From positions 1 through 60,530 of the forward strand of contig JAJHSB010000080.1 of the NCBI GenBank assembly GCA_022684035.1: a stretch of DNA of 60,530 bases. Direction: 5' to 3'. A model generated the notes under the pieces. The model was not told the origin of the DNA and did not search any database. It saw nothing but the letters and a program-made list of their open reading frames with translations. The position numbers and the translations under genes are program-made. The first letter of the stretch is position 1; every line of letters starts with the position of its first letter. The DNA is from Candidatus Acetothermia bacterium (GTDB lineage Bacteria; Bipolaricaulota; Bipolaricaulia; UBA7950). Of the stretch, positions 29,662 through 60,530 are shown piece by piece.

Positions 29662-29759
29662 GTAGCCACTTAAGCTATTTAGGTTGAAGACCGCAGACTT
29701 AAAGTATCTTTATCCTTAACCTTTCCATCTTCGACTTTCAGCCGATCCTAAGTAGTCAT
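29662..29759. repeat. Miniature imperfect inverted-repeat element (copy B, same family as 563-684)
   Basis: gtagccacttaagctatttaggttgaagaccgcagac ... cctaagtagtca; shares ~46 nt with copy A in inverted orientation. Confidence 0.7.
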
Positions 29760-44004: not shown

Positions 44005-44037
44005 GGTCGATTAAGTTCGTAGAGTGAGCGGTTCATC

Positions 44038-44076
44038 TGCCTGTGGTTCCTCTCTGCGCGCGGACACGCACAGGCA
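44038..44076. repeat. REP-like palindrome between convergent genes
   Basis: tgcctgtg ... cacaggca perfect 8-bp arms. Confidence 0.55.
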
Positions 44077-44110
44077 AACGCCCTTCTCCTCTTTCTATAG
44101 CTGCTTTCTT

Positions 44111-45847
44111 TTAAGTGGTAGCACTGCCTGAGATTACGACATCGATAAGCTGCAATTGAATGTTGTTACACCAGTTATCAAACTCTAGTGAGCACACAAC
44201 TCCTGCATCAGCAATCTTTTCCAGAAAATCAATGTAGCCCCCAAAGTTAAATGCGATAAACGGCAGCGTGACATCCGCTTGAATTATCTTACCTTTCAAA
44301 TGCTTCCCATTAGCACCGACAAGATGGAGTTCGTCAAAGCAAGCACACGGCAACAAGAATATAGGAGCGGGATTACCCTTGCCAAACGGAGAGAGAAGAG
44401 CAAGATCCTTATAAGCATCGGTATTAACTCCTTGCGCATCTATTACGGCGTCAATTTCTAATCTTCGTTTAGCGGGCGGTCCTGGGTAATTTTGGAGATA
44501 GGAACGTACACTGGTAACAAACTCTGTCAATCGCTCATTGGCGAGAGAGAGACCAGCCGCCATCTCATGTCCGCCATAGTGAATAAGTACGTTTGAGCAG
44601 CTTTGCAGACAGGCTGTTATATTGAATCCGTTGACACTGCGACAGGAGGCACGGCTGATGCGGTCACCATAAGAGAAGACGATCGCTGGAACGTCATATT
44701 CTTCTACCAAGGATGATGCTACCAGTCCAATAATTCCTTCATTCCAGTATCTACCTCCCACAATGATAATCCCGTCTTGTGAAGGATGTATATTCTCTTT
44801 GGCGAGGATCTCTTTTGCTTGCTGGGTGATCTCTTGCTGATTGGCTGTACGGTCGTGATTATAATCGACCAGAACTTCGGCTAAATATTGAGCCCGATCC
44901 GGCTGGGTTGTTGTCAACAGAAGAAAGGCGACCTTTGGATCTCCCGCCCGATTGGCGGCATTGATTTTTGGGGCGATTAGATATCCAATATCATCTGCTT
45001 GTAGTTGTTCAGGCTTAAGCGCTAATTCTTTTATCAAGGCGCGTATTCCATATGATGAACCTTTTTCTCGGTTAAGAAGCTCAAGCCCTTCGCGGACGAT
45101 CGCCCTGTTCTCTACTTCGTTCTCCTTTGCTAGCGGTACAAGATCAGCGATAGTTCCAATACAGACTAAATCCAATAGATGGTAAGGTGTCGGCCTTCCT
45201 GTCTGTTCATATAATCCACATACTAATTTGTACGCAACCCCTACCCCAGCAAGCGAGCGATTGGGATAAGTCTCTTCCGGTAGGTGCGGATCGATGATCG
45301 CGACTGCCGATGGGAGTTCATCGAAAGGAAGATGATGGTCAGTAACGATCGTATCTATGCCTGCCTCACGAAGATCTGATATCTTCTCACAGTCTGAAAT
45401 ACCGCAATCTACTGTGACGACAAGATTAAATTCTTCTTCGATTGCCCGGCGGACAAAGGCGTACGAAAGACCGTGCCCGAAGGTGCGATCTCCCACTTCA
45501 ACCTTGATCGTCCCGGCCGGAAATAAGGGAAGGAGGCCGTAATAAAGAAGAGCAGCGCCGGTCAATCCATCGGCATCAAAGTCACCATGAATAAATATCT
45601 TCTCTCGGCTATCTATCGCATTGCGCAACCGTCTTACTGCTCTTTCCATTTGAGAGAACAAAAATGGCGAATGGAAAGTATGACGATCAGGATTTATGAT
45701 TTTACGCCATTGACGCCCACCTCGTTGCGCAAGGAGAATAGATAATAAAGGTGAACAAGTAAGCTCATTACTTATTTCGTCGACCAGATTGATCGCAGGA
45801 GGAACTGCCAAAGCCCACTCTTTTCCGGTAAAGAGAAGAGATTTCAT
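44111..45847 (-). CDS. recJ: Single-stranded DNA exonuclease RecJ
   Basis: HGDFDADG, TVDCG, TDHH, APKINAA.R, GGHEMAAG; ATG 45847 overlaps the secF stop. Confidence 0.94.
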   Translation of the reverse strand: MKSLLFTGKEWALAVPPAINLVDEISNELTCSPLLSILLAQRGGRQWRKIINPDRHTFHSPFLFSQMERAVRRLRNAIDSREKIFIHGDFDADGLTGAALLYYGLLPLFPAGTIKVEVGDRTFGHGLSYAFVRRAIEEEFNLVVTVDCGISDCEKISDLREAGIDTIVTDHHLPFDELPSAVAIIDPHLPEETYPNRSLAGVGVAYKLVCGLYEQTGRPTPYHLLDLVCIGTIADLVPLAKENEVENRAIVREGLELLNREKGSSYGIRALIKELALKPEQLQADDIGYLIAPKINAANRAGDPKVAFLLLTTTQPDRAQYLAEVLVDYNHDRTANQQEITQQAKEILAKENIHPSQDGIIIVGGRYWNEGIIGLVASSLVEEYDVPAIVFSYGDRISRASCRSVNGFNITACLQSCSNVLIHYGGHEMAAGLSLANERLTEFVTSVRSYLQNYPGPPAKRRLEIDAVIDAQGVNTDAYKDLALLSPFGKGNPAPIFLLPCACFDELHLVGANGKHLKGKIIQADVTLPFIAFNFGGYIDFLEKIADAGVVCSLEFDNWCNNIQLQLIDVVISGSATT

Positions 45848-46734
45848 CTTTTGGGGCTGTCGGCTCGCATCGTCCATGCATAAAGCACTGGATTAGCAAC
45901 ATATATTGAAGAATAAGTGCCAACGATTACTCCGATTATCAATGCAACGGCAAAACTCCGCAGTACCGGACCACCAACTATAAACAGAATAACCACCGGA
46001 ATGAGGGTTGTGAGAGAGGTATTAATAGTACGCGTCAAAGACTGATTGATGCTGCGGTTTATCACATCAAAGATGGAGGCGCGTTTTTCTACTGCAAGAT
46101 TTTCTCGCACGCGATCGAAGATAACGATTGTATCATTAAGTGAATAACCGATTATCGTGAGAAAAGCAGCGATCGTCGCTAAATTAACCTCCAACTGAAA
46201 GAGAACAAAAACACCCAAAGTAATTATAACGTCATGGACTACGGCAGTTACAGCGCCGACAGCGTACCGCAGGCGGAACCGCCATGAAACATAGAGCAAA
46301 ATTCCAACCAGCGCAAGTAAGATGGCTCCCCATCCCCGATGTACCATTTCACGGCTTATTCGCCCTCCGATAGCACGCCGGGAGATCTCCTCGGCAGGAA
46401 AGGTCTCTTCTAACATCGTCTCTACGCTGGTGATTATCGTGTGGTGCAGCTCAATATTAAGTGGAGTGGTGATAATGATATTATATGTCTCCCTAATCTC
46501 CGTAATTACACTGCCGGCAAGATCAATACCATCAGCCGGAATAGCGCCCAACGCAACACGTAAATCAGCTATTTCCACTGCGTCACGGAAAATGATGGTA
46601 AACTCAGTTCCGCCGGTAAAATCGATACCGAGATTCAACCCATTTACGATGAGCAACAAGATACTCGCTGTAACAACGACGAGGGAAAGAGTTATTCCGA
46701 ACTTACGCGTGCTCAGAAAATCGAACTTAGTCAT
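45844..46734 (-). CDS. secF: Protein translocase subunit SecF
   Basis: GLNLGIDFTGGT, GYSLNDTIVIFDRVREN, SLTRTINTSLTT, GTYSSIYVA. Confidence 0.95.
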   Translation of the reverse strand: MTKFDFLSTRKFGITLSLVVVTASILLLIVNGLNLGIDFTGGTEFTIIFRDAVEIADLRVALGAIPADGIDLAGSVITEIRETYNIIITTPLNIELHHTIITSVETMLEETFPAEEISRRAIGGRISREMVHRGWGAILLALVGILLYVSWRFRLRYAVGAVTAVVHDVIITLGVFVLFQLEVNLATIAAFLTIIGYSLNDTIVIFDRVRENLAVEKRASIFDVINRSINQSLTRTINTSLTTLIPVVILFIVGGPVLRSFAVALIIGVIVGTYSSIYVANPVLYAWTMRADSPKR

Positions 46735-46747
46735 TGTAACTCTTCCC

Positions 46748-47008
46748 TCACATATTGTAAACTCTCTTCGTCATTCGCGATTTGATTCGACTAGCCTTAT
46801 TCTTATGGAATGGTCCATGCGAGGCTGCCTTATCTGCCATCTTTGCCAGCTGAGGAAGCAATTGCTGTGCGCTCTCTTTATTCCCAGTGGCGACGTGATG
46901 TCGCAATTCACTTACTACCTGTTTGAGAGCTTTCTTTCTCATCAAGTTATGTTTTTTTCGCAAAATGTTCTGTCGTGCCTGTTTAGCGGCCGATTTTATA
47001 TTCGCCAT
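46748..47008 (-). CDS. rpsT: 30S ribosomal protein bS20
   Basis: MANIKSAAK...HKNKASRIKSR. Confidence 0.95.
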   Translation of the reverse strand: MANIKSAAKQARQNILRKKHNLMRKKALKQVVSELRHHVATGNKESAQQLLPQLAKMADKAASHGPFHKNKASRIKSRMTKRVYNM

Positions 47009-47151
47009 TCTCTTATCACCCCATATACTGCTCTTAATCCGGTAATAGAACCGTGCGTCACCAGTTACAGCAACTATTAGAGCCTTCTTTTTCTAAGCCT
47101 TCTTTTTACTAATTAATAAATAACTATACCAATTTCAGGGATAAAATCAAC

Positions 47152-47180
47152 TTGACAAAAAGTCTTTGCTGAGGTAAGTT
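47152..47180 (+). promoter_or_regulatory. Probable nrdD promoter
   Basis: TTGACA(47152-47157)-17 nt-TAAGTT(47175-47180). Confidence 0.5.
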
Positions 47181-47218
47181 TTAGCGACAATTTTCTATTA
47201 ATAAAGGGGGATTAAGTT

Positions 47219-49375
47219 TTGACATTAGAAAAGATTGTAAAACGCGATGGCCGCATAGTTGCATTCGATGAGAGTAAGATTACTACTGCAATTTGGAAAG
47301 CGATGCGCTCACTGGATAAGCCTGATGCTACCCTCGCAAAAGAGTTGACTGATCAAGTCACAGCGATATTAACGCGTCGATTTGTCCATGAACTTCCGAC
47401 AGTTGAAGGTGTACAAGATATCGTCGAGGAGGTTCTCCTCGATGGACAACACCATCAACTGGCAAAGGCTTATATCCTATATCGCAAGCAACGTACTGAT
47501 GCGCGTGAAGTAAAAGATTTGCTGGGCAATCTCTCTGTAGTAGAAGACTATATCAATAATGTTGATTGGCGAGTACGCGAGAACAGTAATATGACTTATT
47601 CTCTGCAGGGACTGAACGTTAATATTACCGACAAGGTCATATCGAAATACTGGCTTAATACAATCTATTCGCGTGAGGTCAAAGTTGCCCACGAACGCGG
47701 TGATTTTCATCTCCATGACTTGGGGACGTTAGGTGCCTATTGTGTCGGATGGGATCTGCAAGATCTTCTTGTCCAGGGATTTCGTGGTGTAAGAGGTAAG
47801 ATTGAGTCCCGAGCGGCAAAACACTTCCGCGTTGCGCTGATGCAGGTGGCTAATTTCTTGTATACGCTTCAAGGTGAAACAGCAGGGGCGCAGGCATTCA
47901 GCAACGTAGACACCTACCTTGCTCCCTTTATCCGCTTTGATAATCTCTCCTATCACGAAGTAAAACAGCACATGCAAGAATTTATCTATAACTTAAACGT
48001 ACCGACACGCGTTGGTTTTCAGACCCCGTTTACTAATATCACTCTCGATCTGAAAGTACCAAAATATATGGAAGCGACACCGGTCATCATCGGCGGTAAA
48101 GTTCAGAAAGAAGTGTACGGTGACTTTCAACACGAAATGGATATGTTCAACCGCGCATTCGCTGAGGTAATGACCGAAGGAGATCTCCGCAGCCGGCCAT
48201 TTACTTTTCCGATTCCAACCTATAATATCACCGAAGAATTCGATTGGGATAACAAAAACTTAGATGCTATTTGGGAAATGACCTCCCGCTATGGAATTCC
48301 CTATTTTGCCAATTTTATCGGCAGTGATATGAAGCCTGAAGATGCGCGCAGTATGTGTTGCCGGTTACGGATTGATAATCGTGAGCTGAATAAACGCGGT
48401 GGTGGGTTGTTTGGCGCCAATCCACTCACCGGCTCGATCGGTGTTGTAACAATCAATATGCCCCGTTTAGGGTTCTTGGCTGATAGCACCGCAGACTTTT
48501 TCGATCGCCTCAGTGATCTGATGGTGTTGGCAAAAGAGTCGTTACTTACCAAACGTAAAGTATTAGAGCAACTGACAGACAAAGGGCTCTATCCTTATTC
48601 CAAATTCTATCTGCAAAAGATCAAAGATTTTTCCGGTGAATATTGGAAGAACCACTTCTCCACCATCGGGCTGATCGGAATGAACGACGCCTTGCTCAAT
48701 CTGTTTGGTGAAGATATCACCACGCCACACAGTCATGCGTTCGCCATTGAAGTCCTTAACTTTATGCGGTCTAAATTAGCAGAATTCCAAGCGGAGAGTA
48801 GAGAGATTTTTAATCTGGAAGCAACTCCAGCTGAAGGAGCAAGCTACCGGCTCGCGAGGAACGATCTATCCCGCTTCCCCGACATTCGCATCAGCAATTT
48901 AGAACGTAGCAGAGAAGGTGAACCATACTACACCAACTCAACACACCTACCAGTTTCATTCACCCCTGATATCTTTGCCGCATTAAACCTTCAAGATCAA
49001 CTGCAATCACTTTATACCGGTGGAACCGTCTTCCATGGATTTCTTGGTGAGTCGCTGCCTTCAATACACGCAACAAAAAATCTGGTGCGTAAGATTGCGG
49101 AGAACTACCATCTGCCTTACTACACAATCACTCCTACGTTCAGTATCTGCGTTGAGCATGGATACTTTACGGGAGAGAATGCCCGGTGCCCAGTATGTAA
49201 TGGTGCGTGCGAAGTCTATTCACGCGTCGTCGGTTATCTCCGCCCGGTAGAACAATGGAACAATGGCAAACGAGCGGAATTCGCCGATCGAAAGGTCTTC
49301 TTTTTCGCAACCCCAGAAGAAACAGCAGACCAAGAATCGCTCAAAGAGCAGCTATCATCTGCAGTTAAGGCTTAA
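47219..49375 (+). CDS. nrdD: Anaerobic (class III) ribonucleoside-triphosphate reductase with ATP cone
   Basis: IVKRDGRIVAFD ATP cone, SMCCRL finger loop, NLEATPAE, C-terminal Cys cluster, glycyl-radical YSRVVGYL. Confidence 0.96.
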   Translation: MTLEKIVKRDGRIVAFDESKITTAIWKAMRSLDKPDATLAKELTDQVTAILTRRFVHELPTVEGVQDIVEEVLLDGQHHQLAKAYILYRKQRTDAREVKDLLGNLSVVEDYINNVDWRVRENSNMTYSLQGLNVNITDKVISKYWLNTIYSREVKVAHERGDFHLHDLGTLGAYCVGWDLQDLLVQGFRGVRGKIESRAAKHFRVALMQVANFLYTLQGETAGAQAFSNVDTYLAPFIRFDNLSYHEVKQHMQEFIYNLNVPTRVGFQTPFTNITLDLKVPKYMEATPVIIGGKVQKEVYGDFQHEMDMFNRAFAEVMTEGDLRSRPFTFPIPTYNITEEFDWDNKNLDAIWEMTSRYGIPYFANFIGSDMKPEDARSMCCRLRIDNRELNKRGGGLFGANPLTGSIGVVTINMPRLGFLADSTADFFDRLSDLMVLAKESLLTKRKVLEQLTDKGLYPYSKFYLQKIKDFSGEYWKNHFSTIGLIGMNDALLNLFGEDITTPHSHAFAIEVLNFMRSKLAEFQAESREIFNLEATPAEGASYRLARNDLSRFPDIRISNLERSREGEPYYTNSTHLPVSFTPDIFAALNLQDQLQSLYTGGTVFHGFLGESLPSIHATKNLVRKIAENYHLPYYTITPTFSICVEHGYFTGENARCPVCNGACEVYSRVVGYLRPVEQWNNGKRAEFADRKVFFFATPEETADQESLKEQLSSAVKA

Positions 49376-49438
49376 GATAAACCGGAATGGATAAATGGCA
49401 ACATCCAACCGTTGCCACTCCCCTCTCTTATTGTAAGG

Positions 49439-50152
49439 ATGAACATCGCGTATCTGCTGCCGCTCTCGTTGATCGACTATCTCGATAAGTTATCAGCGGT
49501 GATCTTTACAGCAGGATGCAATTTTCGTTGTCCCTATTGCTATAATAGTGAACTTGTGTTGCCGGAGAGAATCAGTACCACAAGTTCAGTCTCTGAAGAT
49601 GAAGTCTTCTCTTTCTTAACCCAACGCCGAGGTCTTTTAGACGGAGTCGTTATCTCTGGAGGAGAACCGTTGCTTCAGCCGGGGCTGCGTCTCTTTATCA
49701 CCAAAATAAAAGAGCTGGGATTTCTCACAAAACTTGATACCAACGGCGCGTTTCCCAAGATACTTAAAGAGTTACTCCGCAATAATCTCCTTGACTATGT
49801 GGCAATGGATATCAAACGATCAACAGATTATTATGAAGTGGGGGCAGGAGTAGCAGTTGACCTGGAGCGAATCATTACATCGATTCACTTGATTATCAAC
49901 TGCGCACCTGACTATGAATTTCGCACGACAGTCGTTCCAGATATTGATGAAGAAGAACTAATTAAGATCACCACAATGATCACCGGCGCCAAACGTTACA
50001 TCCTGCAACCATTTATAGTCCCGGCGCATAAAGAGCTCGTCGGGCCAATGGAAGAAAGAGCCCCGCACGGACCAGAAATGCTGAATCACTTATGGGAGAG
50101 GATAAAAGATAAATTCCCCGCCGGCGGCGTCCGCCAGACAGGCTCGCTATAA
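49439..50152 (+). CDS. nrdG: Class III RNR activating radical-SAM enzyme
   Basis: GCNFRCPYC, GVVISGGEP, KLDTNG, YEFRTT. Confidence 0.92.
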   Translation: MNIAYLLPLSLIDYLDKLSAVIFTAGCNFRCPYCYNSELVLPERISTTSSVSEDEVFSFLTQRRGLLDGVVISGGEPLLQPGLRLFITKIKELGFLTKLDTNGAFPKILKELLRNNLLDYVAMDIKRSTDYYEVGAGVAVDLERIITSIHLIINCAPDYEFRTTVVPDIDEEELIKITTMITGAKRYILQPFIVPAHKELVGPMEERAPHGPEMLNHLWERIKDKFPAGGVRQTGSL

Positions 50153-50321
50153 ACAGGTTAAACTGCAGTTCCCGCCGATTAATTCTCGATTATTATAATA
50201 ATTGAACCGGCAGCGGAAATCATACGACATACTATCGAATAAATCCTCATTGCGGTTGTGGTTAAAACAAAGTTATGTTACAATACGTTAAGAATAAATG
50301 GACGCAATGATTATGAATAAC

Positions 50322-50503
50322 TTACCGAGGCCGCAAAGAGCGCTGAGAAAGACAAACAATAAGCACTCTGAGTCCTCTGCGTGCTTGGTGGTAAAAAAAA
50401 TAGGGAAGAATGAAAGATGGCATAAACCGCATTGTGTGAGCAATCGGTATATAGAGAGTGCAGAGATTCTGGAAATAAATAATTCTCAGTCTGCTCTGCG
50501 GTT
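50322..50503. repeat. Two tandem imperfect palindromes of the ccgcag/ctgcgg type
   Basis: ttaccgaggccgcaaagag...ctctgcgtgcttggtggtaa (50322-50394); aaccgc...gagagtgcagaga...tctgctctgcggtt (50425-50503). Confidence 0.55.
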
Positions 50504-50544
50504 AATTATCTGTTGACAAACAATCGTTCGCTTGCAAAAGGAGA

Positions 50545-51513
50545 ATGAATATGACAAATACTGTCTTAGCGGTGAAAAATCTTACCAAGATTTATGACGG
50601 ACGACGAGGGAAGAAAACCATTGCTGTCGATGATATCAGCTTTTCTATCAGAAAGAATGAGGTTGTAGGACTCCTCGGCCCAAACGGTGCTGGCAAGACG
50701 ACAACGATCAAGTGCATCTGCACATTGATCAACCCCACGAAGGGCACGATTAACGTCAACGGCACTGATGCAGTAAAGAATTCGCGTACCGTCCTGCAGA
50801 AAGTGACGGCTGTTTTAGAAGGGAACAGAAATATCTACTGGCGGCTCTCAGTGCGGGAGAACCTGGAGTTCTTCGCTGGTCTCCAAGGTATCCCTGCCCG
50901 CCGAGTGCAGAACTATATCGATCAATTGATCGAGTTGTTTCAGCTCAAAGAAAAGGAACAGACCCCGGCACGCAAACTCTCCCGCGGAATGCAGCAAAAG
51001 TTGGCCGTTGCCTGTGCATTGGTTAAGCAAACTGATATCTTGCTTCTCGATGAACCTACATTAGGTCTCGACGTGGAGATATCGCACGAATTGCGCTTCG
51101 CATTAAAAGAGATGGCCCAGCAGGGCGAGCGGACGATCATCGTCTCGAGCCACGACATGAGCGTAGTGCAGGACATTTGCGAGCGAGTGATCATCATCAA
51201 TAATGGGAGAATCGTCACCGACGATCGGGTGGCAAATCTCTTGAGACTGTTCCAGGCCAGTGCTTATCGTTTCGAGATCGAAGGCCGACTGGCCGAGCAG
51301 CAGGTGAAGCGACTGGAGGAGCGGTTTGAGATGCTCAAGGTCAGCGGAACCGACTACCACACCGAGATCGAAGTAGATCTGGAAGATGGCAACCAGATAT
51401 ACGAGATCATGGATATATTAAAAGAGGGCGACAGTCGCATAAGGTCAATCGCGCGCAAAGATCCGAACATGGAAGAGATATTCCTCACAATTATCAAAGG
51501 AAGCAAACAGTGA
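50545..51513 (+). CDS. ABC-2 type exporter ATP-binding protein
   Basis: GPNGAGKTT, LSRGMQQK, LLLDEPT, SSH. Confidence 0.93.
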   Translation: MNMTNTVLAVKNLTKIYDGRRGKKTIAVDDISFSIRKNEVVGLLGPNGAGKTTTIKCICTLINPTKGTINVNGTDAVKNSRTVLQKVTAVLEGNRNIYWRLSVRENLEFFAGLQGIPARRVQNYIDQLIELFQLKEKEQTPARKLSRGMQQKLAVACALVKQTDILLLDEPTLGLDVEISHELRFALKEMAQQGERTIIVSSHDMSVVQDICERVIIINNGRIVTDDRVANLLRLFQASAYRFEIEGRLAEQQVKRLEERFEMLKVSGTDYHTEIEVDLEDGNQIYEIMDILKEGDSRIRSIARKDPNMEEIFLTIIKGSKQ

Positions 51514-52286
51514 GATACTTGGTGCTCTTTAAGACGATGTTTAAATGGGAGTTCATCATAATGAGACGATATCTGTTCAATATGCTCTCAGCGCTCATCA
51601 GTATTTACATCCTTTTCCTGCTTATCTTCTTTGGTGTGCGCACTTTGGGCGGCGGCGCACCAGGATTCGGGGGCACTCTGGACGCAATCGTCGTTGGTTT
51701 TTTAGTTTGGACCTTCGCGCTCTTCACCTATAGTAATTTTGCCTGGGGAATGATTCGTGAAGCACAAGAAGGCACACTGGAGCAGTTGTACATGTCCTCG
51801 GTCGGATTCATCTGGGTCTCTCTGTTTCGCAGCATGAGTTCTTTTCTCATCACGTTGATATTCAATATTACTTTGTTGATATTGATGATGGCTACTACCG
51901 GCCGCTGGCTCCATCTCGATGTAATCAGTCTTCTGCCGCTATTACTCCTTACGCTCGCCGGTGTTTATGGTATCGGGCTTGTAATGGGCGGGTTGGCATT
52001 GGTCTTCAAGCGGATCGAGTCGTTCCTCCAGATCTTTCAATTCGCCATCATTGGACTGATTGCTACTCCGATCGACCGGTTTCCGGTGCTGCGATTTCTG
52101 CCGCTCTCTCAAGGGTATGAACTGATCCGCCAGGTGATGGCTGAGGGGCTATCCATCGGGCAGCTTCCAACTGGCGATCTCCTGTTATTAGTGATTAATT
52201 CAGCATTTTACCTCGGGATCGGTCTGATCGCGTTCCACCTCCTGCTGAAGACGGCGAGGAATAGGGGGCTGCTGGGACATTACTGA
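51510..52286 (+). CDS. ABC-2 type permease, paralogue 1
   Basis: ~6 TM segments, EAQEGTLEQLY loop, ends RGLLGHY. Confidence 0.9.
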   Translation: MRYLVLFKTMFKWEFIIMRRYLFNMLSALISIYILFLLIFFGVRTLGGGAPGFGGTLDAIVVGFLVWTFALFTYSNFAWGMIREAQEGTLEQLYMSSVGFIWVSLFRSMSSFLITLIFNITLLILMMATTGRWLHLDVISLLPLLLLTLAGVYGIGLVMGGLALVFKRIESFLQIFQFAIIGLIATPIDRFPVLRFLPLSQGYELIRQVMAEGLSIGQLPTGDLLLLVINSAFYLGIGLIAFHLLLKTARNRGLLGHY

Positions 52287-52363
52287 TCGCCCTGTTTAGG
52301 GAGGATACGATTAGACGCTTGCAGAGAGCAGAGAACGGCCGTACATACACATAAAGGAGAAAA

Positions 52364-52609
52364 ATGGGCTTTACATGTGGGTTGATCGGCTTACCCAATG
52401 TCGGCAAATCTATGCTGTTGAACGCACTCTCTGCTGCCGGTGCCCAGGTGGAGAGTTATCCATTCTCCACATCATTTGCCAATGTCAATGTAGCAGATGT
52501 GCCGGATGAGCAGCTCGACCTTCTTGCCGCTTTCCGGAGAAGCAGAAGATCCCCACCCAATTACAGTTCCTTGATATCGCCGGCTTAGTGAGCGGAGCAA
52601 GCACGGGAG
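52364..52609 (+). pseudogene. ychF: Truncated, frameshifted ychF 5' fragment
   Basis: Copy of the ychF start with GKSML P-loop change and a 4-nt deletion (gccgctttcc vs gccgctctctttcc); homology ends at 52609. Confidence 0.9.
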
Positions 52610-52645
52610 GAGAAATGCGAGGAGGAAGGGACAGTGGAGTGACAG

Positions 52646-53440
52646 ATGAATAAGCAAGTTACTGAACTGCCGACGGCCTCCTCTGCCAAGATCCTCGCGA
52701 ACGTCGCCGAGACCGTTGCTCTGGTGGGTGGTCCGGTACTGGCAATGATCAAGTTGTCTGCCGTCTATCCCGGCGCATGGCTGATCGCTGGCATCGGCGT
52801 TCTGGCCTTTCTACTGGCAGTGCTTCTCGGTCAGGTTGGCTTCATGCGCTTGGTCACAAACCGGTGGAAGAAGCGCGCGCTGGCGCGGGGGCTACACGAG
52901 GACCAGACGCGCAAGACCTACCTGTATGCCCGTTTGATTCCCATAGGCTCTCTAACGGCCGGGGTGCTTGAGGAGACAGCGCGTTTCGCTTTGCTATCGT
53001 TGATGCTGCCATACGCCGCAGCACCTTGGATTATAGGAGTCGCCTTCGGCCTCGGTCACGGTGGAATCGAGTCTATTGTGCTCGGTCTCGCCAGCGGCGT
53101 CGTTGGTTTGCTCGACTTTCTCCTTCCCGCGAAAATGGCCGGTCTCACCCTGACCGGCGTGCGGCGGTACAGGGCGAGCGAGCACTGGATCGGAATCGGC
53201 GAACGCGCAGGAGTCACTCTCTGCCATGTCCTCTTCACACTTCTGGTAGTCCGCACCGTTCTCACCGGAAACATCCTTTGGTACTTTACGGCTATGGCCC
53301 TGCATGCAACGATGGACTTTGTTTGGGGATCAGGGCGGCTCCGGTATGGCTGGTCACTCTTTCGCTGTATGCTGGTCCCGTGGGTCACTGCTCTTGCTGG
53401 TCTTTTACTCTTGTGGGTTTCAGGCGGCTTGTTGACCTGA
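52646..53440 (+). CDS. YhfC-family intramembrane glutamic/metalloprotease (PrsW/CPBP-like clan)
   Basis: AGVLEETAR, GLGHGGIE, ER...H, ALHATMD in a multi-TM protein. Confidence 0.8.
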   Translation: MNKQVTELPTASSAKILANVAETVALVGGPVLAMIKLSAVYPGAWLIAGIGVLAFLLAVLLGQVGFMRLVTNRWKKRALARGLHEDQTRKTYLYARLIPIGSLTAGVLEETARFALLSLMLPYAAAPWIIGVAFGLGHGGIESIVLGLASGVVGLLDFLLPAKMAGLTLTGVRRYRASEHWIGIGERAGVTLCHVLFTLLVVRTVLTGNILWYFTAMALHATMDFVWGSGRLRYGWSLFRCMLVPWVTALAGLLLLWVSGGLLT

Positions 53441-53441
53441 T

Positions 53442-53464
53442 GGGGGCTGCTGGGGCACTATTAA
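53442..53464 (+). pseudogene. Orphan 3' tail of a third ABC-2 permease paralogue
   Basis: ggg ctg ctg ggg cac tat taa = GLLGHY*, the same ending as both permeases but with different codons. Confidence 0.7.
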
Positions 53465-53480
53465 CATCGGAGGTTAGACA

Positions 53481-53552
53481 TTGACCGAAGATACAGGTGT
53501 TGGGAGAGTCAAGTTCTGGGAGCAGACCTTCATTTTAAGCAGATTAAGGTAA
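53481..53552 (+). pseudogene. 23-aa ORF or gene stub with strong SD, containing the RAYT-flank-like motif
   Basis: ggagg + TTG: MTEDTGVGRVKFWEQTFILSRLR*; gggagcagaccttcatttt at 53518-53536. Confidence 0.35.
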
Positions 53553-53565
53553 GGGGGCGCGGACA

Positions 53566-54567
53566 ATGTCGGTTCAGATCCGCACACTGAGGGCCAAAGA
53601 TGTAGACGGGTTCGTGAGCTTGATGCTCATGGCCCACAGCGATGACGTCAAGCTCTTTGGGATCGACGCCGGTAAAGGCGCCGCGCAACTCCGCTCTGCA
53701 TTAACCAATCCGCTTCTCCGGGGACTGCAGGCGATCAGTGGGGCCACGGGGCGCTTCCTGGTCGCCGTGAGTGGGGGCGAGGTGGTCGGTTTAGTTGGCC
53801 TGACTGGGCAGAAGGTGCTGGAGGTGGTGGGCACGGCGGTCCATCCCGACTACCGCGGTCGGGGGATCGGAAAGGCCCTGATGGAGGCCATCCTTGCTGA
53901 GGCGCGGCGCTTGGGGCGCGATCGGGTCACTGTGGGCGTGCGGGAGGACAACCTCCCCGCGGTCCGCCTCTACGAGCAATCAGGGTTCCAGACCTACCAG
54001 CGCCTGAGCTATGTGAGTCTGGATCTTCCGTTTGATCGTAGTCTATTTCTCGCCGACGAACATGCCGCAGTCAGGCACTACCACCCGGCGGATGGGGAGC
54101 GGCTCGTTGCGGTAGAGAGGCGCGTGCTCTCGGCGGAGCATCTTCGGGTGCAAACTTCGGGGAGGTCGCGGTATGAGCCCACGTTTGGGGGAAGGCTCCG
54201 CGCGCAGCTTCTCGGCCTCAAGAGGCGAGGGCTCGTCTTGGTCGTAAGGGGCCAAGCGGTGGGCTTCGTCCTGGTCCGGGCGGACGCTTCCGCTCATGTG
54301 GGAAGGATGGAAGAGCTTCTGATGGAAAGCGAGCATGCGGAGCACCTTCCCGCCTTGCTTAAGGCAGGCCTGGAATTTTTGGAGGGAGCGGGGAAGCGTC
54401 GCTCGCTGCTCACCTTCCCTGCGGAGCAGGAGGCCGTGGGCCGAGAGATCAAGCGCCTGGGATTTTGTGAGGAGATGGCCGCTCTCATCATGGTATGCTG
54501 GCTTTCTGAACCTGCGGAGGGAGTCTTCGGGAAGAGAGTGGGGCATGAGCGAGAGACAGACAAGTAG
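53566..54567 (+). CDS. Tandem GNAT-family N-acetyltransferase
   Basis: AVHPDYRGRGIGKAL and NLPAVRLYEQSGF motif A/B; second degenerate GNAT domain. Confidence 0.88.
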   Translation: MSVQIRTLRAKDVDGFVSLMLMAHSDDVKLFGIDAGKGAAQLRSALTNPLLRGLQAISGATGRFLVAVSGGEVVGLVGLTGQKVLEVVGTAVHPDYRGRGIGKALMEAILAEARRLGRDRVTVGVREDNLPAVRLYEQSGFQTYQRLSYVSLDLPFDRSLFLADEHAAVRHYHPADGERLVAVERRVLSAEHLRVQTSGRSRYEPTFGGRLRAQLLGLKRRGLVLVVRGQAVGFVLVRADASAHVGRMEELLMESEHAEHLPALLKAGLEFLEGAGKRRSLLTFPAEQEAVGREIKRLGFCEEMAALIMVCWLSEPAEGVFGKRVGHERETDK

Positions 54568-54805
54568 GCAGTGGGATACACTGTACAGGGGAACAGAGTG
54601 CGTCTGGGGCATTGAGCCGGACCGTGTGTGTGGTGTGGAGGAAGCGTTCCGGAATCAAAACAGGCTTCTCTCATCGAAAGATGAGTGTGAGCCGTTACCT
54701 TTTGATATACTTAAAGCAGGCGACAGCCGTATAAAGGCGATCGCTCACAAAGATCCGAACATGGAAGAGATATTCCTCACAATTATCAAAGGAGGTAAAA
54801 AGTGA
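54545..54805 (+). pseudogene. Chimeric ORF: methyltransferase-like N-terminal stub fused in frame to ABC ATPase C-terminal stub
   Basis: MSERQTSRQWDTLYRGTECVWGIEPD...DILKAGDSRIKAIAHKDPNMEEIFLTIIKGGKK*; stop overlaps GTG of permease 2. Confidence 0.6.
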
Positions 54806-55905
54806 GATACTTGGTGCTCTTTAAGACGATAGTTAAATGGGAGTTCATCATGATGAGACGATATCTGTTCAATATGCTCTCATTTCTGATTAGTATGTAT
54901 ATCTTTTTCCTGCTTATCTTCTTGGGTGTACGCGCCTTGGGCGGCGGCGCATCAGGATTCGGGGGAACTCTGGACGCGATCATCGTAGGATTCTTAGTCT
55001 GGACCTTCGCGATCTCCACTTATAGTGATTTTGCCCAGGGAATGGTTCAGGAAGCACAAGAGGGCACACTGGAGCAGTTGTACATGTCCTCGGTCGGATT
55101 CATCTGGGTCTCTCTGTTTCGCAGCATGAGTTCTTTTCTCATCACGTCAATATTTATTATTACTTTGTTGATATTGATGATGGCTACTACCGGCCGCTGG
55201 CTCTATCTCGATGTAATCAGTCTCCTGCCGCTATTACTCCTTACGCTCGCCGGTGTTTACGGTATCGGGTTTATCATGGGAGGATTGGCATTGGTCTTCA
55301 AGCGGATCGAGTCGTTCATCGGGATCTTTCAATTCGCCATGGTCGGGCTGATCGCTGCTCCGATCGACCGGTTCCCGGTGCTGCGCTATCTGCCGCTCTC
55401 TCAGGGGAACGAACTAATCCGCCGGGTGATGGCCGAGGGGCTATCTATCGGGCAGCTTCCAACCGGCGATCTCCTGTTATTGGTGATTAATTCCGCATTT
55501 TACCTCGGGATCGGGCTGATTACATTCAAGCTGCTACTTAAGACAGCGAAGAATAGAGGACTGTTGGGGCATTACTGATCGCCCTGTTTAGGGAGGATAC
55601 GATTAGACGCTTGCAGAGAACAGAGAACGGCCGTACATACACATAAAGGAGAAAAATGGGCTTTACATGTGGGTTGATCGGCTTACCCAATGTTGGCAAA
55701 TCTACGCTGTTGAACGCACTCTCTGCTGCCGGTGCCAAGGTGGAGAGTTATCCATTCTCCACCATTACTACCAATATTGGTGTAGTAGATGTGCCGGATG
55801 AGCGGCTCGACCTTCTTGCCGCTCTCTTTCCGGAGAAGCAGAAGATCCCCACCCAATTACAGCTCCTTGATATCGCCGGCTTAGTGAGCGGAGCAAGCGC
55901 GGGAG
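54704..55905 (+). repeat. ~1.2-kb direct repeat, copy 2
   Basis: Matches 51412-52609. Confidence 0.95.
54802..55578 (+). CDS. ABC-2 type permease, paralogue 2
   Basis: Same length as paralogue 1; about 32 of 258 residues differ by manual count. Confidence 0.9.
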   Translation: MRYLVLFKTIVKWEFIMMRRYLFNMLSFLISMYIFFLLIFLGVRALGGGASGFGGTLDAIIVGFLVWTFAISTYSDFAQGMVQEAQEGTLEQLYMSSVGFIWVSLFRSMSSFLITSIFIITLLILMMATTGRWLYLDVISLLPLLLLTLAGVYGIGFIMGGLALVFKRIESFIGIFQFAMVGLIAAPIDRFPVLRYLPLSQGNELIRRVMAEGLSIGQLPTGDLLLLVINSAFYLGIGLITFKLLLKTAKNRGLLGHY

Positions 55906-56744
55906 AAGGATTAGGAAATCAGTTTCTCGCTGAAATCAGAACAGTTGATGCCATTCTCCATGTTGTACGTTGTTTCCGCGATGAGAATGTGGCTCACGTT
56001 ACCGGAGAATTGGACCCGGAAGGAGATATTGCAATCGTCAATACCGAACTTCTACTCAAAGACCTTGAGACATTACAGCGAACTTGCGCCACCCTTTCCC
56101 GGCAACAGAAATCCGGTGACCGTCAGATTAAAACGCGGTTTACTCTCTGCCAAACGCTCCTTGAAACTGTAGCCCGGGGTTCCGCTATCGATATAGGAGA
56201 GGTTGATTCTGATGCGGAAGCGCTGATTCGTGAACTCTCTCTCCTTACTGCCAAGCCGGTCCTCTATATAGCCAATGTCGATGATAACGGCAAGAACGAA
56301 TATTCACGCCGGGTAGAAGAATTAGGGCAGAGAAACGGAATAAGGACGATCACCATCTGCGGCCGAATCGAAGCAGAGATAGCCGAGATAGCTGTAACGC
56401 CTCTGGAGAGAAAGAGTTACTTAACAGCATGGGGGCTCGCTGAGAGTGGCCTTTCCCAATTGATTCGTGCCAGTTACGATCTGCTGAAATTGGTCACCTT
56501 CTTCACAATTGACGGACCAGAAGTCCGCGCGTGGACCGTACCACAGAATACAACGGCTCCGATTGCTGCCGGTAAAGTCCATAGCGATTTTGCCAATCGC
56601 TTCGTCCAGGCAGAAGTGATGGATGTAGAAAATCTTTGCCAATATAAGAGTGTGAAGACGTTGCGAGAAAAGGGTCTGATAAGACGCGCCGGCCGTGATC
56701 ATATTGTGCAAGATGGCGAGATCATCCATTTTATCTGTGGATAA
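55656..56744 (+). CDS. ychF: Redox-regulated ATPase YchF (Obg family)
   Basis: GLIGLPNVGKSTL, DIAGLV.GAS.GEGLGNQFL, TAKP..YIANV, AAGKVHSDF..RFVQAEV. Confidence 0.95.
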   Translation: MGFTCGLIGLPNVGKSTLLNALSAAGAKVESYPFSTITTNIGVVDVPDERLDLLAALFPEKQKIPTQLQLLDIAGLVSGASAGEGLGNQFLAEIRTVDAILHVVRCFRDENVAHVTGELDPEGDIAIVNTELLLKDLETLQRTCATLSRQQKSGDRQIKTRFTLCQTLLETVARGSAIDIGEVDSDAEALIRELSLLTAKPVLYIANVDDNGKNEYSRRVEELGQRNGIRTITICGRIEAEIAEIAVTPLERKSYLTAWGLAESGLSQLIRASYDLLKLVTFFTIDGPEVRAWTVPQNTTAPIAAGKVHSDFANRFVQAEVMDVENLCQYKSVKTLREKGLIRRAGRDHIVQDGEIIHFICG

Positions 56745-56756
56745 GGCAGCAGGTAA

Positions 56757-56921
56757 GTCATTGCGAGTTTACGAAGCAATCCCGTTGCTTTAGCCTAGTC
56801 GTAGGGGCAACCCCCTGTGGTTGCCCATTTTTGGGACAGGCACAGGGGCCTGCCCCTACAGGAATAATGATGCCATGGACATGACAAGATTGCCACGAGT
56901 TCTGCGAACTCTCGCAATGAC
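56757..56921. repeat. Nested REP-like elements
   Basis: Outer gtcattgcgag..gaagcaatc / gattgccacg..ctcgcaatgac; inner gtaggggcaaccccctgtggttgccc..gggacaggcacaggggcctgcccctac (56801-56859). Confidence 0.85.
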
Positions 56922-56960
56922 AAGAAAAAGGAGGCGCTGCATCCCCGCAATGGCAAGAAC
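56887..56960 (+). repeat. Left copy of ~75-bp long-range inverted repeat
   Basis: First 43 nt are identical to the reverse complement of the 3' end of 60312-60387; the remainder is similar. Confidence 0.9.
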
Positions 56961-57065
56961 GCTTGCTGCCAGCTTGTTCATACTGGATCTTACTTGCGTG
57001 CAAGCATAACTATTACATATAATAGAAGGCAAGTCATATCTTTTGCTTGCCGAGGAGGAGATACA

Positions 57066-57677
57066 ATGATACGCAGCATCAAATTATCAAAGATTCTGTT
57101 GGTTATAGCCGCTATTTTACTTGTTACCGCACCGAGCAGCTGGGGACAAGCAGAATTAGACGAATTCCCATTTGGGACAACGACAATGGTCTATCGTATC
57201 GTCAGTGAAGAGATAGAAGCGCCGCAATATTTGCGGATAACGGTCACCGGTTTGGAAGACGGACGGTTTCAACTCATCATAACGCAGGAGGCGATCGGAA
57301 CGCCGGAGGAGTTAGCCTTCTTTGGTCTTTTAGGTGGAATGATGTTGCCTCACGCTGACGGGCGTGAAATCGACTTTACGCCGCTCTTCTTTCTGATGGA
57401 ACGCCGTGAATTGCTTGTAGTAGGTGAAGAGTTCCTCCTCATCAGAGGAGGAAGATTCATTGTCGTTAAGTATATTGAAATTGCAGGAATAGAAGCGATT
57501 CAGGGAATTTTCTTTCATCCACGACAACCTACTGAGCGAATAGTCATTGCTTTTTCCCTCCGAGCTCCGGTCTTTCTCTTTCCACGGTTGCGAGTGGAAG
57601 AACTGATCAACGATGAATGGGTGTCTCGATTTGAAGTCGAATTGATTGAGTACGCCCATCAACTACCAGCCAAATAG
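57066..57677 (+). CDS. Hypothetical secreted protein
   Basis: ggaggag + ATG 57066; signal-peptide-like MIRSIKLSKILLVIAAILLVTAPSSWG; no family recognised. Confidence 0.75.
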   Translation: MIRSIKLSKILLVIAAILLVTAPSSWGQAELDEFPFGTTTMVYRIVSEEIEAPQYLRITVTGLEDGRFQLIITQEAIGTPEELAFFGLLGGMMLPHADGREIDFTPLFFLMERRELLVVGEEFLLIRGGRFIVVKYIEIAGIEAIQGIFFHPRQPTERIVIAFSLRAPVFLFPRLRVEELINDEWVSRFEVELIEYAHQLPAK

Positions 57678-57685
57678 GAGGCAGA

Positions 57686-58372
57686 ATGTCATTAGTAAAA
57701 TTGCGCAACATTACCAAAGAATATCAGTTGGGAAAGACAGTGGTGCACGCACTACGCGGGGTTGATCTGGCGATCGACGCGGGAGAGATCGTCGCCATCA
57801 TGGGACCATCGGGATCGGGTAAATCAACCCTAATGCACATCATCGGCTGCCTCGATATGCCTTCGGTAGGGGAGGTGGAGATTGAAAATATGCCGACAGA
57901 TTCTCTCAGAGAGCGACAACTGGCAACAATACGAGGTCGCAAGATTGGGTTTGTCTTCCAAACATTCAACTTAGTCGCCAGCCTCACTGCGCAGGGGAAT
58001 GTGGCATTACCGATGATCTTTCAGAAAATAAAGCGAACTCAGCGTACACAACGAGCCGCGGAGTTGTTGGAGAAAATCGGCTTGGGTGATCGGAAGAACC
58101 ATCACCCTAATGAACTCTCAGGTGGAGAGCGACAGCGAGTCTCTATCGCGCGGGCAATGGCCAATGACCCCGATATTATCCTTGCTGACGAGCCGACCGG
58201 AAACCTCGATTCTGAGAGCGGGGCGACGGTAATGAGAACTCTCAGGCGCCTGAGCGACGAGGAAGGAAAAACGGTGATCGTCGTCACTCATAACCCCGAG
58301 GTTGCTGCTTATGCAGATAGGGTTATCACATTACGTGACGGAAAAATAATTAAGGAGGAGCGCCGTGATTAA
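57686..58372 (+). CDS. ABC ATP-binding protein, LolD/MacB/SalX type
   Basis: GPSGSGKST, LSGGERQR, LADEPTGNLD, VTH. Confidence 0.94.
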   Translation: MSLVKLRNITKEYQLGKTVVHALRGVDLAIDAGEIVAIMGPSGSGKSTLMHIIGCLDMPSVGEVEIENMPTDSLRERQLATIRGRKIGFVFQTFNLVASLTAQGNVALPMIFQKIKRTQRTQRAAELLEKIGLGDRKNHHPNELSGGERQRVSIARAMANDPDIILADEPTGNLDSESGATVMRTLRRLSDEEGKTVIVVTHNPEVAAYADRVITLRDGKIIKEERRD

Positions 58373-59618
58373 AGATTTCTTCTTTCTGGCACTAAAGACT
58401 GTGCGGCAGCGCCGGCTGCGCAGTTGGCTGACGGTGATCGGAGTCGTTATCGGGATCACGGCCGTGGTGGCACTGCTCTCTCTCGGCATTGGACTGGAGC
58501 GAACAATCATTGCTCAGGTCGAGGGGATATTCGGAGTAGATACGATAATGATTATGAGAGGAGTCGAGGAGAGAGATCCGAGGAGAGATACGAGAAGAGG
58601 TCCGGTACCTGGGCTGATTGACATCGAACCTGACCTGGTGCGCCAGGTGGAGGAGGTCGTTGCCATCGCCCCAATCCGGTCGGAGACAGGTCTTATTCGC
58701 AGAGTGGCGGAAAATGGTGTGCCAGTAAGTGGTTTCTTTCCGGTAATCGGACTTTACTCGGAGATGGTCACTGAGTTCAGGGCGTTTATCGGGGAGTTTC
58801 CGATCGCTGCCGGCCGGATGTTAATCGTCGGAGATGAGCGCAAGGCAATCCTCGGCTATGCTGTTGCTCAGAGATTGGCGGTAACGCCCGGCAAAACGAT
58901 CGAGATCGAAGGCCAGTCATTTCAAGTCGTTGGGATCATTGAAACCTATCCCGAGGAGATGAAAGCGGCCATGGGTGCCGCTGCCGGGCTGGAACCGATT
59001 CTCACCGATGAGACAATCTTCATTCCATTTGCGATGATGGAGGAGATCTTTGGCGATGCTGGAGCACCTCTCTTCTTGGCTAAAGCAGGCGAAAGAGAGG
59101 ATGTGGTAATCGTGGCTGAGAGAATCAACACCGCGCTTGCTGAAGCAGGTGTGGATGGTATTTTATTAGTGACGTTTGAGGAGATCAGTCAAGGAATCGG
59201 GACTATGGTTAACATCGTGAGCTCCTTTGTTGCCGGGCTTGCGGGTATCGCCCTCCTTGTTGGCGGAGTGGGGCTGATGAACACTATGTATACATCTGTT
59301 CTGGAGCGAACGAGAGAGATCGGAGTAATGAAGGCGGTCGGGGCGCAGAACAGGCATATCTTGTCGATCTTCCTTATCGAATCAAGCCTGATGGGGTTTA
59401 TCGGCGGAATAGTCGGCATTATTTTGGGTCTGTTGCTAAGCGTTGGGGCGTCGCTCGCGATGCGCCATTTTTGGGAATTTGAGCTACTTCTGGGGATCAG
59501 CGCGCCGCTGATTATCGGAGCGCTTCTCTTCTCCCTCCTCGTTGGAGCCATTGCAGGCATGTTGCCGGCACGGCGAGCGAGTAAGTTGCGTCCGGTTGAA
59601 GCTTTTCGCTACGAATAG
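58365..59618 (+). CDS. ABC permease, MacB/FtsX (SalY) type
   Basis: RSWLTVIGVVIGI, large extracytoplasmic domain, GVGLMNTMYTSVLERTREIGVMKAVGA. Confidence 0.93.
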   Translation: MIKDFFFLALKTVRQRRLRSWLTVIGVVIGITAVVALLSLGIGLERTIIAQVEGIFGVDTIMIMRGVEERDPRRDTRRGPVPGLIDIEPDLVRQVEEVVAIAPIRSETGLIRRVAENGVPVSGFFPVIGLYSEMVTEFRAFIGEFPIAAGRMLIVGDERKAILGYAVAQRLAVTPGKTIEIEGQSFQVVGIIETYPEEMKAAMGAAAGLEPILTDETIFIPFAMMEEIFGDAGAPLFLAKAGEREDVVIVAERINTALAEAGVDGILLVTFEEISQGIGTMVNIVSSFVAGLAGIALLVGGVGLMNTMYTSVLERTREIGVMKAVGAQNRHILSIFLIESSLMGFIGGIVGIILGLLLSVGASLAMRHFWEFELLLGISAPLIIGALLFSLLVGAIAGMLPARRASKLRPVEAFRYE

Positions 59619-59774
59619 CGGTTTTACCGACATAATGGGGTATGCGATGCACTAAGATAAAGATTTGCAGCAAGCCAACTGTTCTGTTAGATGAAAAATA
59701 ACTAGCCGACCGTTGGATTTTGTTTATCCTGTTATCCGGTCAAAAAACTTACCTTAGCATTAAGGAGGAAAAGA

Positions 59775-60164
59775 ATGCTAAAAGAGAAACAACGTCATGG
59801 TTGCCTTACTATTTGGCTCGTATTACTGATTATCGGAGGCGTACTATCGCTTATCGGAACGGCTGTAATGTATCTTGTGGATCCCCAACTAATGAGAGAG
59901 ACTTTTCCGGATGCTCCGGGATGGACAGTTTATGCGATGGGCCTTATCAGCCTCTTTAGCTTTGTCTTCGCGATTGTCCTATTCACCTGGAAGAAGTGGG
60001 CATTTTGGGGTTATGTAGTGACCAGTATCGCCAGCGCTATTGTGAGTATAACAATGGGAACACCCGCTTGGCAATGGCTGTTAGGCTTAACTGGTGTAGT
60101 TATCCTCTACGGAGTGCTGCAGATCGGCGGCGAAGAGAAGAAAGGCTGGACACAGTTGGAGTAA
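59775..60164 (+). CDS. Hypothetical ~4-TM membrane protein
   Basis: ggagg + ATG; KQRHGCLTIWL followed by hydrophobic segments. Confidence 0.75.
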   Translation: MLKEKQRHGCLTIWLVLLIIGGVLSLIGTAVMYLVDPQLMRETFPDAPGWTVYAMGLISLFSFVFAIVLFTWKKWAFWGYVVTSIASAIVSITMGTPAWQWLLGLTGVVILYGVLQIGGEEKKGWTQLE

Positions 60165-60311
60165 TCAACTCGGCTCGCTATTCCGAGAGTGATCTTACCG
60201 GACTTACTCCCACTCTGCTTTCGCTGACTTAGCTTGGCCTCTCTGCCTACCCGCGATCGGGCGGGCGTTAGGCAAGTGGCTTTTACCCACACGTAAGACC
60301 GTAGCCTTCTT

Positions 60312-60387
60312 GTTCTTATCATTGCCGGGGGTGCAGCATCTCTTTTTTTCTTGTCATTGCGAGAGTTCGCAGAACTCGTGGCAATCT
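60312..60387 (-). repeat. Right copy of ~75-bp long-range inverted repeat
   Basis: gttcttatcattgcc...cttgtcattgcgagagttcgcagaactcgtggcaatct. Confidence 0.9.
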
Positions 60388-60456
60388 CAAAGAGATAATG
60401 CTCGTTTAGATACTAAAATCTGAAGTCTTGCGCAAAATGGGAAGGAAATGAAAACA

Positions 60457-60515
60457 CAAATTCCAAGCACCAATTTCCAAACAAATCTCAATGACCAATG
60501 ACCAAAATCTCAAAC
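60457..60515. repeat. Left arm of a heptad-type low-complexity element
   Basis: caaattccaagcaccaatttccaaacaaatctcaatgaccaatgaccaaaatctcaaac (aatgacc twice); partner arm presumably beyond the window. Confidence 0.55.
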
Positions 60516-60530
60516 AGAAAGGCCGGAGTC

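Follow-up and report, generated by a model that had tools for sequence, protein, structure and literature searches.

The 60,530-nucleotide contig JAJHSB010000080.1 (GenBank assembly GCA_022684035.1, labelled Candidatus Acetothermia bacterium), taken over its whole length and referred to below as the window, carries at the ychF locus a block of foreign-looking genes enclosed by two direct repeats. Each repeat is made up of the end of an ABC transporter ATPase gene, an ABC-2 permease gene, a spacer and the 5' end of ychF. We read the locus, with a probability of about one half, as the fixed scar of a past single-crossover (Campbell-type) insertion-duplication and not as an active element. The features concerned are, in order along the plus strand:

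50545–51513 (+), full ABC transporter ATPase, DrrA-like, 322 amino acids (Pfam ABC_tran, 2.6e-33, and DrrA1-3_C; NCBIfam drrA subfamily, 4e-71)
51412–52612 (+), left repeat copy, 1.2 kb (repeat search, alignment)
51510–52286 (+), left ABC-2 permease, 258 amino acids, intact, with a GTG start overlapping the ATPase stop
52278–52470 (+), low-divergence tract of the repeat (spacer and first ~35 ychF codons), with 4 differences from 55570–55762
52364–52612 (+), 5' pseudogene fragment of ychF; its open reading frame (ORF; 74 amino acids) has its stop at 52588, while homology extends to 52612, about ychF codon 83–84
52613–54703 (+), foreign cargo, 2,091 bp, GC 0.60
52646–53440 (+), membrane protein resembling YhfC-family intramembrane metalloproteases, 264 amino acids (Pfam PF10086, 1e-13)
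53566–54567 (+), GNAT N-acetyltransferase, 333 amino acids, with the GNAT domain at residues 60–145 and an uncharacterised C-terminal half
54545–54805 (+), fusion ORF, 86 amino acids: the 5' end of a donor gene (53 codons) in frame with the last 33 ATPase codons
54704–55908 (+), right repeat copy, 1.2 kb (repeat search, alignment)
54802–55578 (+), right ABC-2 permease, 258 amino acids, intact, 87.9% identical in amino acids to the left permease
55656–56744 (+), full ychF, 362 amino acids (Pfam MMR_HSR1 and YchF-GTPase_C), with its first ~84 codons within the right repeat

Repeat search and MAFFT/global alignment show the two copies (51412–52612 and 54704–55908) to be colinear direct repeats that differ in 120 of 1205 columns (90.0% identity), the left copy having a 4-bp deletion at ~52529 relative to the right. 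They are the sole long repeat in the whole window. A single contiguous chromosomal segment is directly duplicated on both sides of the insert, with the inner gene ends cut and the outer genes whole: the left side has the full ATPase, whose final 33 codons fall within the left repeat, and the right side only a stub of it; of ychF, the left side has a fragment and the right side the full gene. Duplication with truncated genes facing inward and intact genes outward is the geometry of a single crossover. In experiments with Escherichia coli, flanking duplication instead of deletion was the diagnostic mark of a circular molecule having entered by a single crossover; substrates built to reveal homology-facilitated illegitimate recombination (HFIR) mostly yielded flanking duplications by single crossover, whereas true HFIR yielded deletions (PMC3240628). 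An initial annotation of this DNA had described such a repeat bracketing a more GC-rich cargo, with the ATPase completed and ychF broken on the left and the converse on the right, and had named single-crossover integration or duplication-insertion as the source. Alignment, repeat search, ORFs and Pfam domains agree with that description and the geometry is the one reported in E. coli. Composition bears it out as well, the GC content being 0.599 in the insert, 0.472 in the window as a whole and 0.49 in the repeats, and the two genes of the insert having a GC content at third codon positions (GC3) of 0.66 and 0.73 against a median of 0.48 for the long ORFs of the window. The near-identity of the copies that the same annotation implied did not hold, the actual divergence being ~10%.

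The locus has this form in four independent assemblies: the window, a contig of the Joint Genome Institute (JGI), a contig of an NCBI metagenome-assembled genome (MAG) and per-run Logan contigs. Window positions 43566–60530 (17 kb) have a counterpart of 99.8% identity in the JGI metagenome contig Ga0484004_000695, where the architecture is unchanged. Logan contig L002 (52573–54777) spans both cargo borders and carries the left-type variants at 52603 and 52610, while Logan contig L006 (53940–56830) runs from the cargo through the entire right repeat into unique ychF sequence. In contig L039 (50235–52089) the ATPase is continuous into the left permease, and in the NCBI MAG contig (L005, GCA_022683985.1; 54953–60519) a right-type permease is joined to full ychF and the genes 3' of it.

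Divergence between the copies is not uniform. It amounts to 14.3% in the ATPase tail (14/98 differences) and 10.6% in the permease (82/777), and to 1.3% in the spacer (1/77) and 2.6% in the first 26 ychF codons (2/78). The switch is abrupt and lies near 52278; of the 155 columns in 52287–52441, 3 differ (binomial P = 9e-5 when set against the mean of the repeat). Further into the ychF fragment there are a few isolated substitutions, a scrambled 24-nt patch (52471–52494) and the 4-bp deletion, which shifts the reading frame. When the codons ahead of the frameshift are compared with those of the functional ychF, 9 have changed nonsynonymously and 2 synonymously, one of these changes turning GKST into GKSM in the P-loop; this is the pattern of a pseudogene in decay. 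Derived changes in the ATPase stub, polarised by hand with six outgroups, number ~7 synonymous to 3 nonsynonymous, where neutral decay is expected to give a ratio of ~1:3 to 1:4 (75–80% nonsynonymous; binomial P ~0.004 by our own arithmetic). Small as these numbers are, they suggest that during most of the time in which left and right diverged the stub was still the end of a functioning ATPase, which would make the truncation and the cargo junction younger than the split between the permeases. One crossover leads to the expectation of a uniform age or of reciprocal mosaics, whereas the repeat is composed of segments at 10–14% and at 2–3%. For a Campbell event to have given such a two-age pattern, divergence must already have varied along the donor allele, or other events must have followed.

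The structure is present both in the window and in the JGI strain, which differ by ~11 single-nucleotide polymorphisms (SNPs) over 17 kb (~0.07%), and the event is therefore far older than the sampled strain diversity. Five of these ~11 SNPs are clustered within 82 nt of the left permease (52061–52142); two have the base of the right copy and three are novel. Gene conversion from the right copy was considered for this cluster and rejected, as only 2 of the 5 sites are right-type and the diagnostic sites between them stay left-type. A third allele may have contributed a short imported stretch here, or the cluster may be noise in the strain consensus.

Every relative recovered (L007, L009, L015–L036) has a single ATPase and a single permease, and the nearest outgroup (L008, 82% nucleotide identity) has the permease followed by the spacer and the start of ychF. 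A cargo-free order of ATPase, permease and ychF is therefore the ancestral arrangement. In the nearest outgroup (L008 840–995, L007 10778–10961) the spacer between permease and ychF contains a ~45-nt element (GCCCTGTGCAGTTCCCTGCCTTCGCAGGGACATGCCTACTTCAT...) once or twice in tandem; the 77-nt spacer of the window lacks the element, and the L007 contig ends within it.

The left and right permeases are sister sequences. Compared with the outgroup protein P0002, identity is 85.7% for the left and 82.3% for the right permease, and at three sites that do not vary among 17 orthologs the two permeases carry derived replacements in common. By the Nei–Gojobori method synonymous divergence (dS) is 0.286 between left and right and 0.66–0.67 between each of them and the outgroup, and the ratio of nonsynonymous to synonymous divergence (dN/dS) between left and right is 0.23. 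Out of 83 positions invariant among orthologs the left permease violates 4 and the right permease 5, with 3 of these common to both. The right permease thus has an intact ORF, keeps most invariant residues and evolves at a low dN/dS, as a functional paralog does; from the dN/dS and the kept invariant sites both copies are maintained genes. The ATPase and both permeases have a GC3 of 0.62–0.64, against the median of 0.48 for the long ORFs of the window (nrdD 0.46, ychF 0.49), and the whole ABC operon may have been acquired rather recently or be exchanged often. Acquisition of this kind would fit a locus at which ychF is conserved and the adjoining ABC allele diverged. The host can be described as an uncultivated Dehalococcoidia-like bacterium. 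Dehalococcoidia are the source of the nearest named homologs of both the permease and the YhfC-like gene, whereas the NCBI MAG of this population (GCA_022683985.1; L005; P0150) is labelled Candidatus Acetothermia bacterium; that label may be wrong, or the contig may be mis-binned.

Look-ups of the exact 258-residue proteins gave no record for the left permease under that start codon, and for the right permease an occurrence in L006 only. The listing of permease clusters at 90% holds the window, JGI and NCBI versions only, with no hybrids. A metagenome scan with the right permease alone returned two distant loci only, its patterns being too specific, and a genome scan with the permease alignment returned 20 loci, 0 of them from the window's own species.

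Among 5.8 billion proteins the GNAT of the cargo has only four relatives, at 72–85% amino acid identity. They lie on contigs of 59–62% GC in differing neighbourhoods, none of them beside a YhfC gene. The dN/dS of the GNAT against these relatives is 0.19–0.27, showing purifying selection, and its GC3 is not ameliorated (0.734 against 0.69–0.77 in the homologs). The contig of the closest relative (L013) matches window positions 53448–54622 at 87%, a stretch that includes the first 26 codons of the gene overlapping the GNAT stop. In the window only 53 codons of this donor gene are left, and they continue in frame into the ATPase stub. The start of the fusion ORF overlaps the GNAT stop and its own stop overlaps the GTG start of the right permease (GTGA), as at the native ATPase/permease junction. 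The fusion ORF has no match in Pfam or NCBIfam. A proposal that its N-terminus is the start of a methyltransferase found no support in either database, and the methyltransferases adjoining GNAT in L011 and L012 are unrelated to it. In L013 itself (1175–1805) similarity to the cargo stops 26 codons into the gene after GNAT, and the next ORF there begins MARPLRIDFAGAVYHV...; the idea that this is the N-terminus of a Y1/IS200-type transposase was dropped, the ORF having no Pfam match.

The relatives of the YhfC-like gene form a single cluster at 78% amino acid identity, and a genome scan with YhfC gave no match. Its similarity to the Dehalococcoidia contig L037 (87.5% in DNA) is confined to the ORF (52642–53439), the flanks being unrelated. 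Against its only relative the gene has a dN/dS of 0.64, much above the 0.19–0.27 of the GNAT, which suggests that it may be under relaxed or diversifying selection. Upstream of the relative, L037 (1–595) carries a truncated N-terminus of an ABC ATPase (Walker A region; 35% to the window ATPase by tblastn; Pfam ABC_tran E = 0.037) followed by repeat-like sequence. This neighbourhood may be a coincidence, or a hint that the YhfC gene tends to adjoin ABC transporter genes. Given the differing neighbourhoods, the similarity of the YhfC gene within the ORF only and the gene cut at the right edge, the cargo is a patchwork of rare chromosomal genes that derive from relatives of higher GC, and not the discrete mobile unit envisaged in the initial annotation.

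These observations can be arranged as follows. The ancestral order would have been ABC ATPase, permease, spacer and ychF. A piece of DNA of ~3.3 kb, most likely circularised beforehand, would have entered the resident locus by homologous recombination; it would have consisted of the 2.1-kb chromosomal patchwork, from higher-GC Dehalococcoidia-like donors, and of a copy of the ATPase tail, permease, spacer and 5' end of ychF. This homologous segment would have come from a related lineage, with an ABC allele already ~10% diverged and a ychF region nearly identical to that of the recipient. Integration would have doubled the segment, keeping the ATPase whole on the left and ychF whole on the right, and would have left the ychF 5' fragment and the ATPase stub facing the cargo. 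Afterwards the ychF fragment would have decayed (P-loop change, scrambled patch, frameshift), and the GNAT and both permeases would have been retained by selection. A plain Campbell event with an identical segment explains neither the two-age pattern nor the signature of selection in the stub. An incoming piece with a diverged ABC allele and a nearly identical ychF leader is the most economical single-event model. A piece from a related lineage gives a left/right divergence of 10% in one part and 2–3% in the other wherever the crossover fell. A history in which the repeats started out identical and the left copy later took in an imported, diverged ABC allele also fits.

Several points weigh against this single-crossover history. 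For a circle to form from foreign DNA and 1.2 kb of host-like DNA, two illegitimate joins must have come first, and the model leaves their origin unexplained. No circular form, donor replicon or within-species empty-site allele was found, which keeps the intermediate hypothetical; the lineage occurs in only ~7 datasets from few environments, so that the lack of an empty site is weak evidence. The stub statistics depend on ~10 substitutions polarised by hand, and the two-age pattern is also obtainable by later gene conversion or allelic import.

The last point leads to the alternative that survives best, although it is an unlikely one: an old duplication-insertion in situ, in which the repeats were identical ~dS 0.29 ago, diverged in place, and had their last ~335 nt homogenised later by gene conversion. 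The sister relationship of the two permeases and the derived residues that they have in common agree with such a history, as do the statistical significance of the low-divergence tract and the natural way in which a conversion tract would end at the boundary of homology. Conservation of both permeases is also what would be expected if a homodimer became a heterodimer. The right ATPase stub should, however, have been neutral throughout, yet its derived changes are mostly synonymous, and the GC3 of the GNAT shows no amelioration towards the window, though amelioration is slow.

Doubtful too, and slightly more so, is a history in two steps, namely a spontaneous tandem duplication of ATPase, permease and ychF, followed by illegitimate capture of foreign DNA in its redundant middle and by later import or conversion. 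The duplication would disrupt no gene and the capture possibly deleted part of the middle; the final geometry is identical. Such a history needs no circular intermediate, the middle of a tandem duplication is the only place where an insertion is free of cost, and a random-looking chromosomal patchwork with a cut gene at its edge is what illegitimate capture would be expected to bring in. It requires at least three events, however, tandem duplications are unstable unless selected, and no cargo-free duplicated form is seen among the relatives and clusters.

The initial annotation had suggested a reversible accessory module that homologous recombination may both install and excise; such a module would be active and polymorphic in the population. 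We consider this improbable. Identical runs of 85, 73 and 50 nt are still shared by the two copies. Runs of this length are long enough for RecA-dependent exchange, and exchange between the copies is mechanistically possible; a crossover within 52278–52470 would restore the ancestral ATPase–permease–ychF locus exactly and release a circle of ~3.29 kb. In agreement with the initial annotation no site-specific recombinase lies nearby: the genes called between ~38.6 kb and 60.5 kb (~14 kb on the upstream side and 5 kb on the downstream side) include no recombinase or transposase family of Pfam, and tRNA/tmRNA and Rfam scans of the window gave no match. An integrase-mediated island or prophage is not indicated by a locus with neither recombinase nor tRNA/tmRNA and with repeats of 1.2 kb instead of short attachment (att) sites, nor is an insertion sequence or composite transposon, as 49000–58500 contains no inverted repeats, there is no transposase domain and the repeated unit consists of host genes. 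Against the reversible module stand the divergence of the copies, 10% overall with a permease dS of 0.29, and a structure that predates the strain diversity of ~0.07%. All datasets with these genes show the occupied form; no empty, hybrid or collapsed allele was found in the public assemblies and datasets that carry these proteins, nor any hybrid permease in the 90% clusters. Collapse would remove the GNAT and the second permease, a maintained gene under purifying selection. Searches of plasmids, phages and viruses with the 3.3-kb unit gave no relevant match, the GNAT having only a weak generic match in viral contigs, and thus no counterpart of a mobile unit of this size. The reading as a reversible accessory module is unsupported.

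About as improbable is that the 3.3-kb unit (cargo, ATPase stub, permease and ychF leader) is a non-autonomous cassette that spreads reversibly among related Dehalococcoidia by host homologous recombination, with its copy of a core-gene junction as an address label and no recombinase of its own. Least probable of all is an assembly artefact in which ABC/ychF alleles of two co-occurring strains were stitched together via shared sequence, the outcome by which the initial annotation would have been overturned: a metagenome makes mixed strains likely, the two copies have identical stretches of as much as 85 nt, the low-divergence tract of the spacer could lead assemblers working at small k astray, and the cluster of five SNPs in the left permease hints at heterogeneity between strains, but a co-assembly chimera appears unlikely because the four independent assemblies agree in phasing and junctions, the left ychF fragment joined to the cargo in L002 is a frameshifted pseudogene and therefore not another strain's normal allele, and any chimera would still require both novel junctions in real DNA.

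The ATPase and ychF are both undisrupted. A weak consensus scan finds no terminator-like site between the ATPase gene and a hairpin behind ychF (56796–56826); promoter-like and terminator-like sites were at chance level in these scans. As the insert holds no terminator-like site and the stops and starts of GNAT, fusion ORF and permease overlap, it appears to be read through within one transcription unit, and the cargo and second permease would be expressed as an operon extension from the duplicated ychF leader.

Elsewhere in the window, positions 56887–56960 and 60312–60387 are inverted copies of a ~76-nt element whose 43-nt arms are 100% complementary (matches of ~89% also occur). A G+C-rich hairpin, GGGCAACCCCCTGTGGTTGCCC (56805–56826), adjoins the first copy and scores as a terminator after ychF, and the JGI strain has 22 bp extra at window position 60435, beside the second copy. 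The element looks like a repetitive extragenic palindromic (REP) or miniature inverted-repeat transposable element (MITE)-like intergenic repeat. A 49-nt inverted repeat pair at 636–684 and 29662–29710 (80% complementary, 29 kb apart) may be due to chance.

If the single-crossover history is right, the locus is a clean natural case, from an uncultivated lineage, in which foreign genes reached the chromosome via homology and not through the enzyme of a mobile element. Such an event can leave behind a second transporter permease that is then kept by selection, and the internal divergence of the flanking repeats can be used to order the steps of the insertion. The event is of a known kind and reveals no new mechanism; it is ordinary recombination biology in an unusual host. 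For annotation, the 74-residue 'GTPase' is a pseudogene fragment and the 86-residue ORF a junction fusion, and neither should be counted as a gene.

Among known systems, tandem segmental duplication with paralog retention likewise gives two sister permeases under purifying selection, and ABC-2 systems with two paralogous permeases are common. Here, in contrast, the copies lie 2.1 kb of foreign DNA apart, the duplicated unit cuts two genes and its segments differ in age. The minimal mobile elements of the Neisseria type, in which cargo is exchanged by homologous recombination in conserved flanking genes and no mobility genes are present, also place accessory cargo at a core-gene locus through host homologous recombination; with these elements a double crossover takes place, its two exchanges lying in different flanking genes, and nothing is duplicated. 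Foreign DNA is anchored by homology to a resident gene in HFIR too. Displaced orphan arrays have been attributed to HFIR, namely the type VI secretion system immunity arrays of Vibrio cholerae and those from the displacement of C-termini in Rhs and contact-dependent inhibition (CDI) proteins. In such arrays an orphan toxin tip stands with its immunity gene, and the stub of an upstream gene with its downstream partner seen here is analogous (PMC5361080). HFIR typically has one homologous and one illegitimate junction with deletion of recipient DNA (PMC3240628), whereas here both borders (52612/52613 and 54703/54704) are novel joins and recipient DNA is duplicated. The closest likeness is to Campbell-type integration of non-replicating plasmids that carry an internal chromosomal fragment, which also leaves a direct duplication on both flanks with the inner ends cut, requires no site-specific recombinase and is in principle reversible via the repeats (PMC3240628). 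The present locus differs in being without an identified vector, replicon or circle and in having repeats that are 10% diverged and of two ages; it goes back to an old, natural event, is apparently fixed, and has kept the duplicated permease as a conserved paralog.

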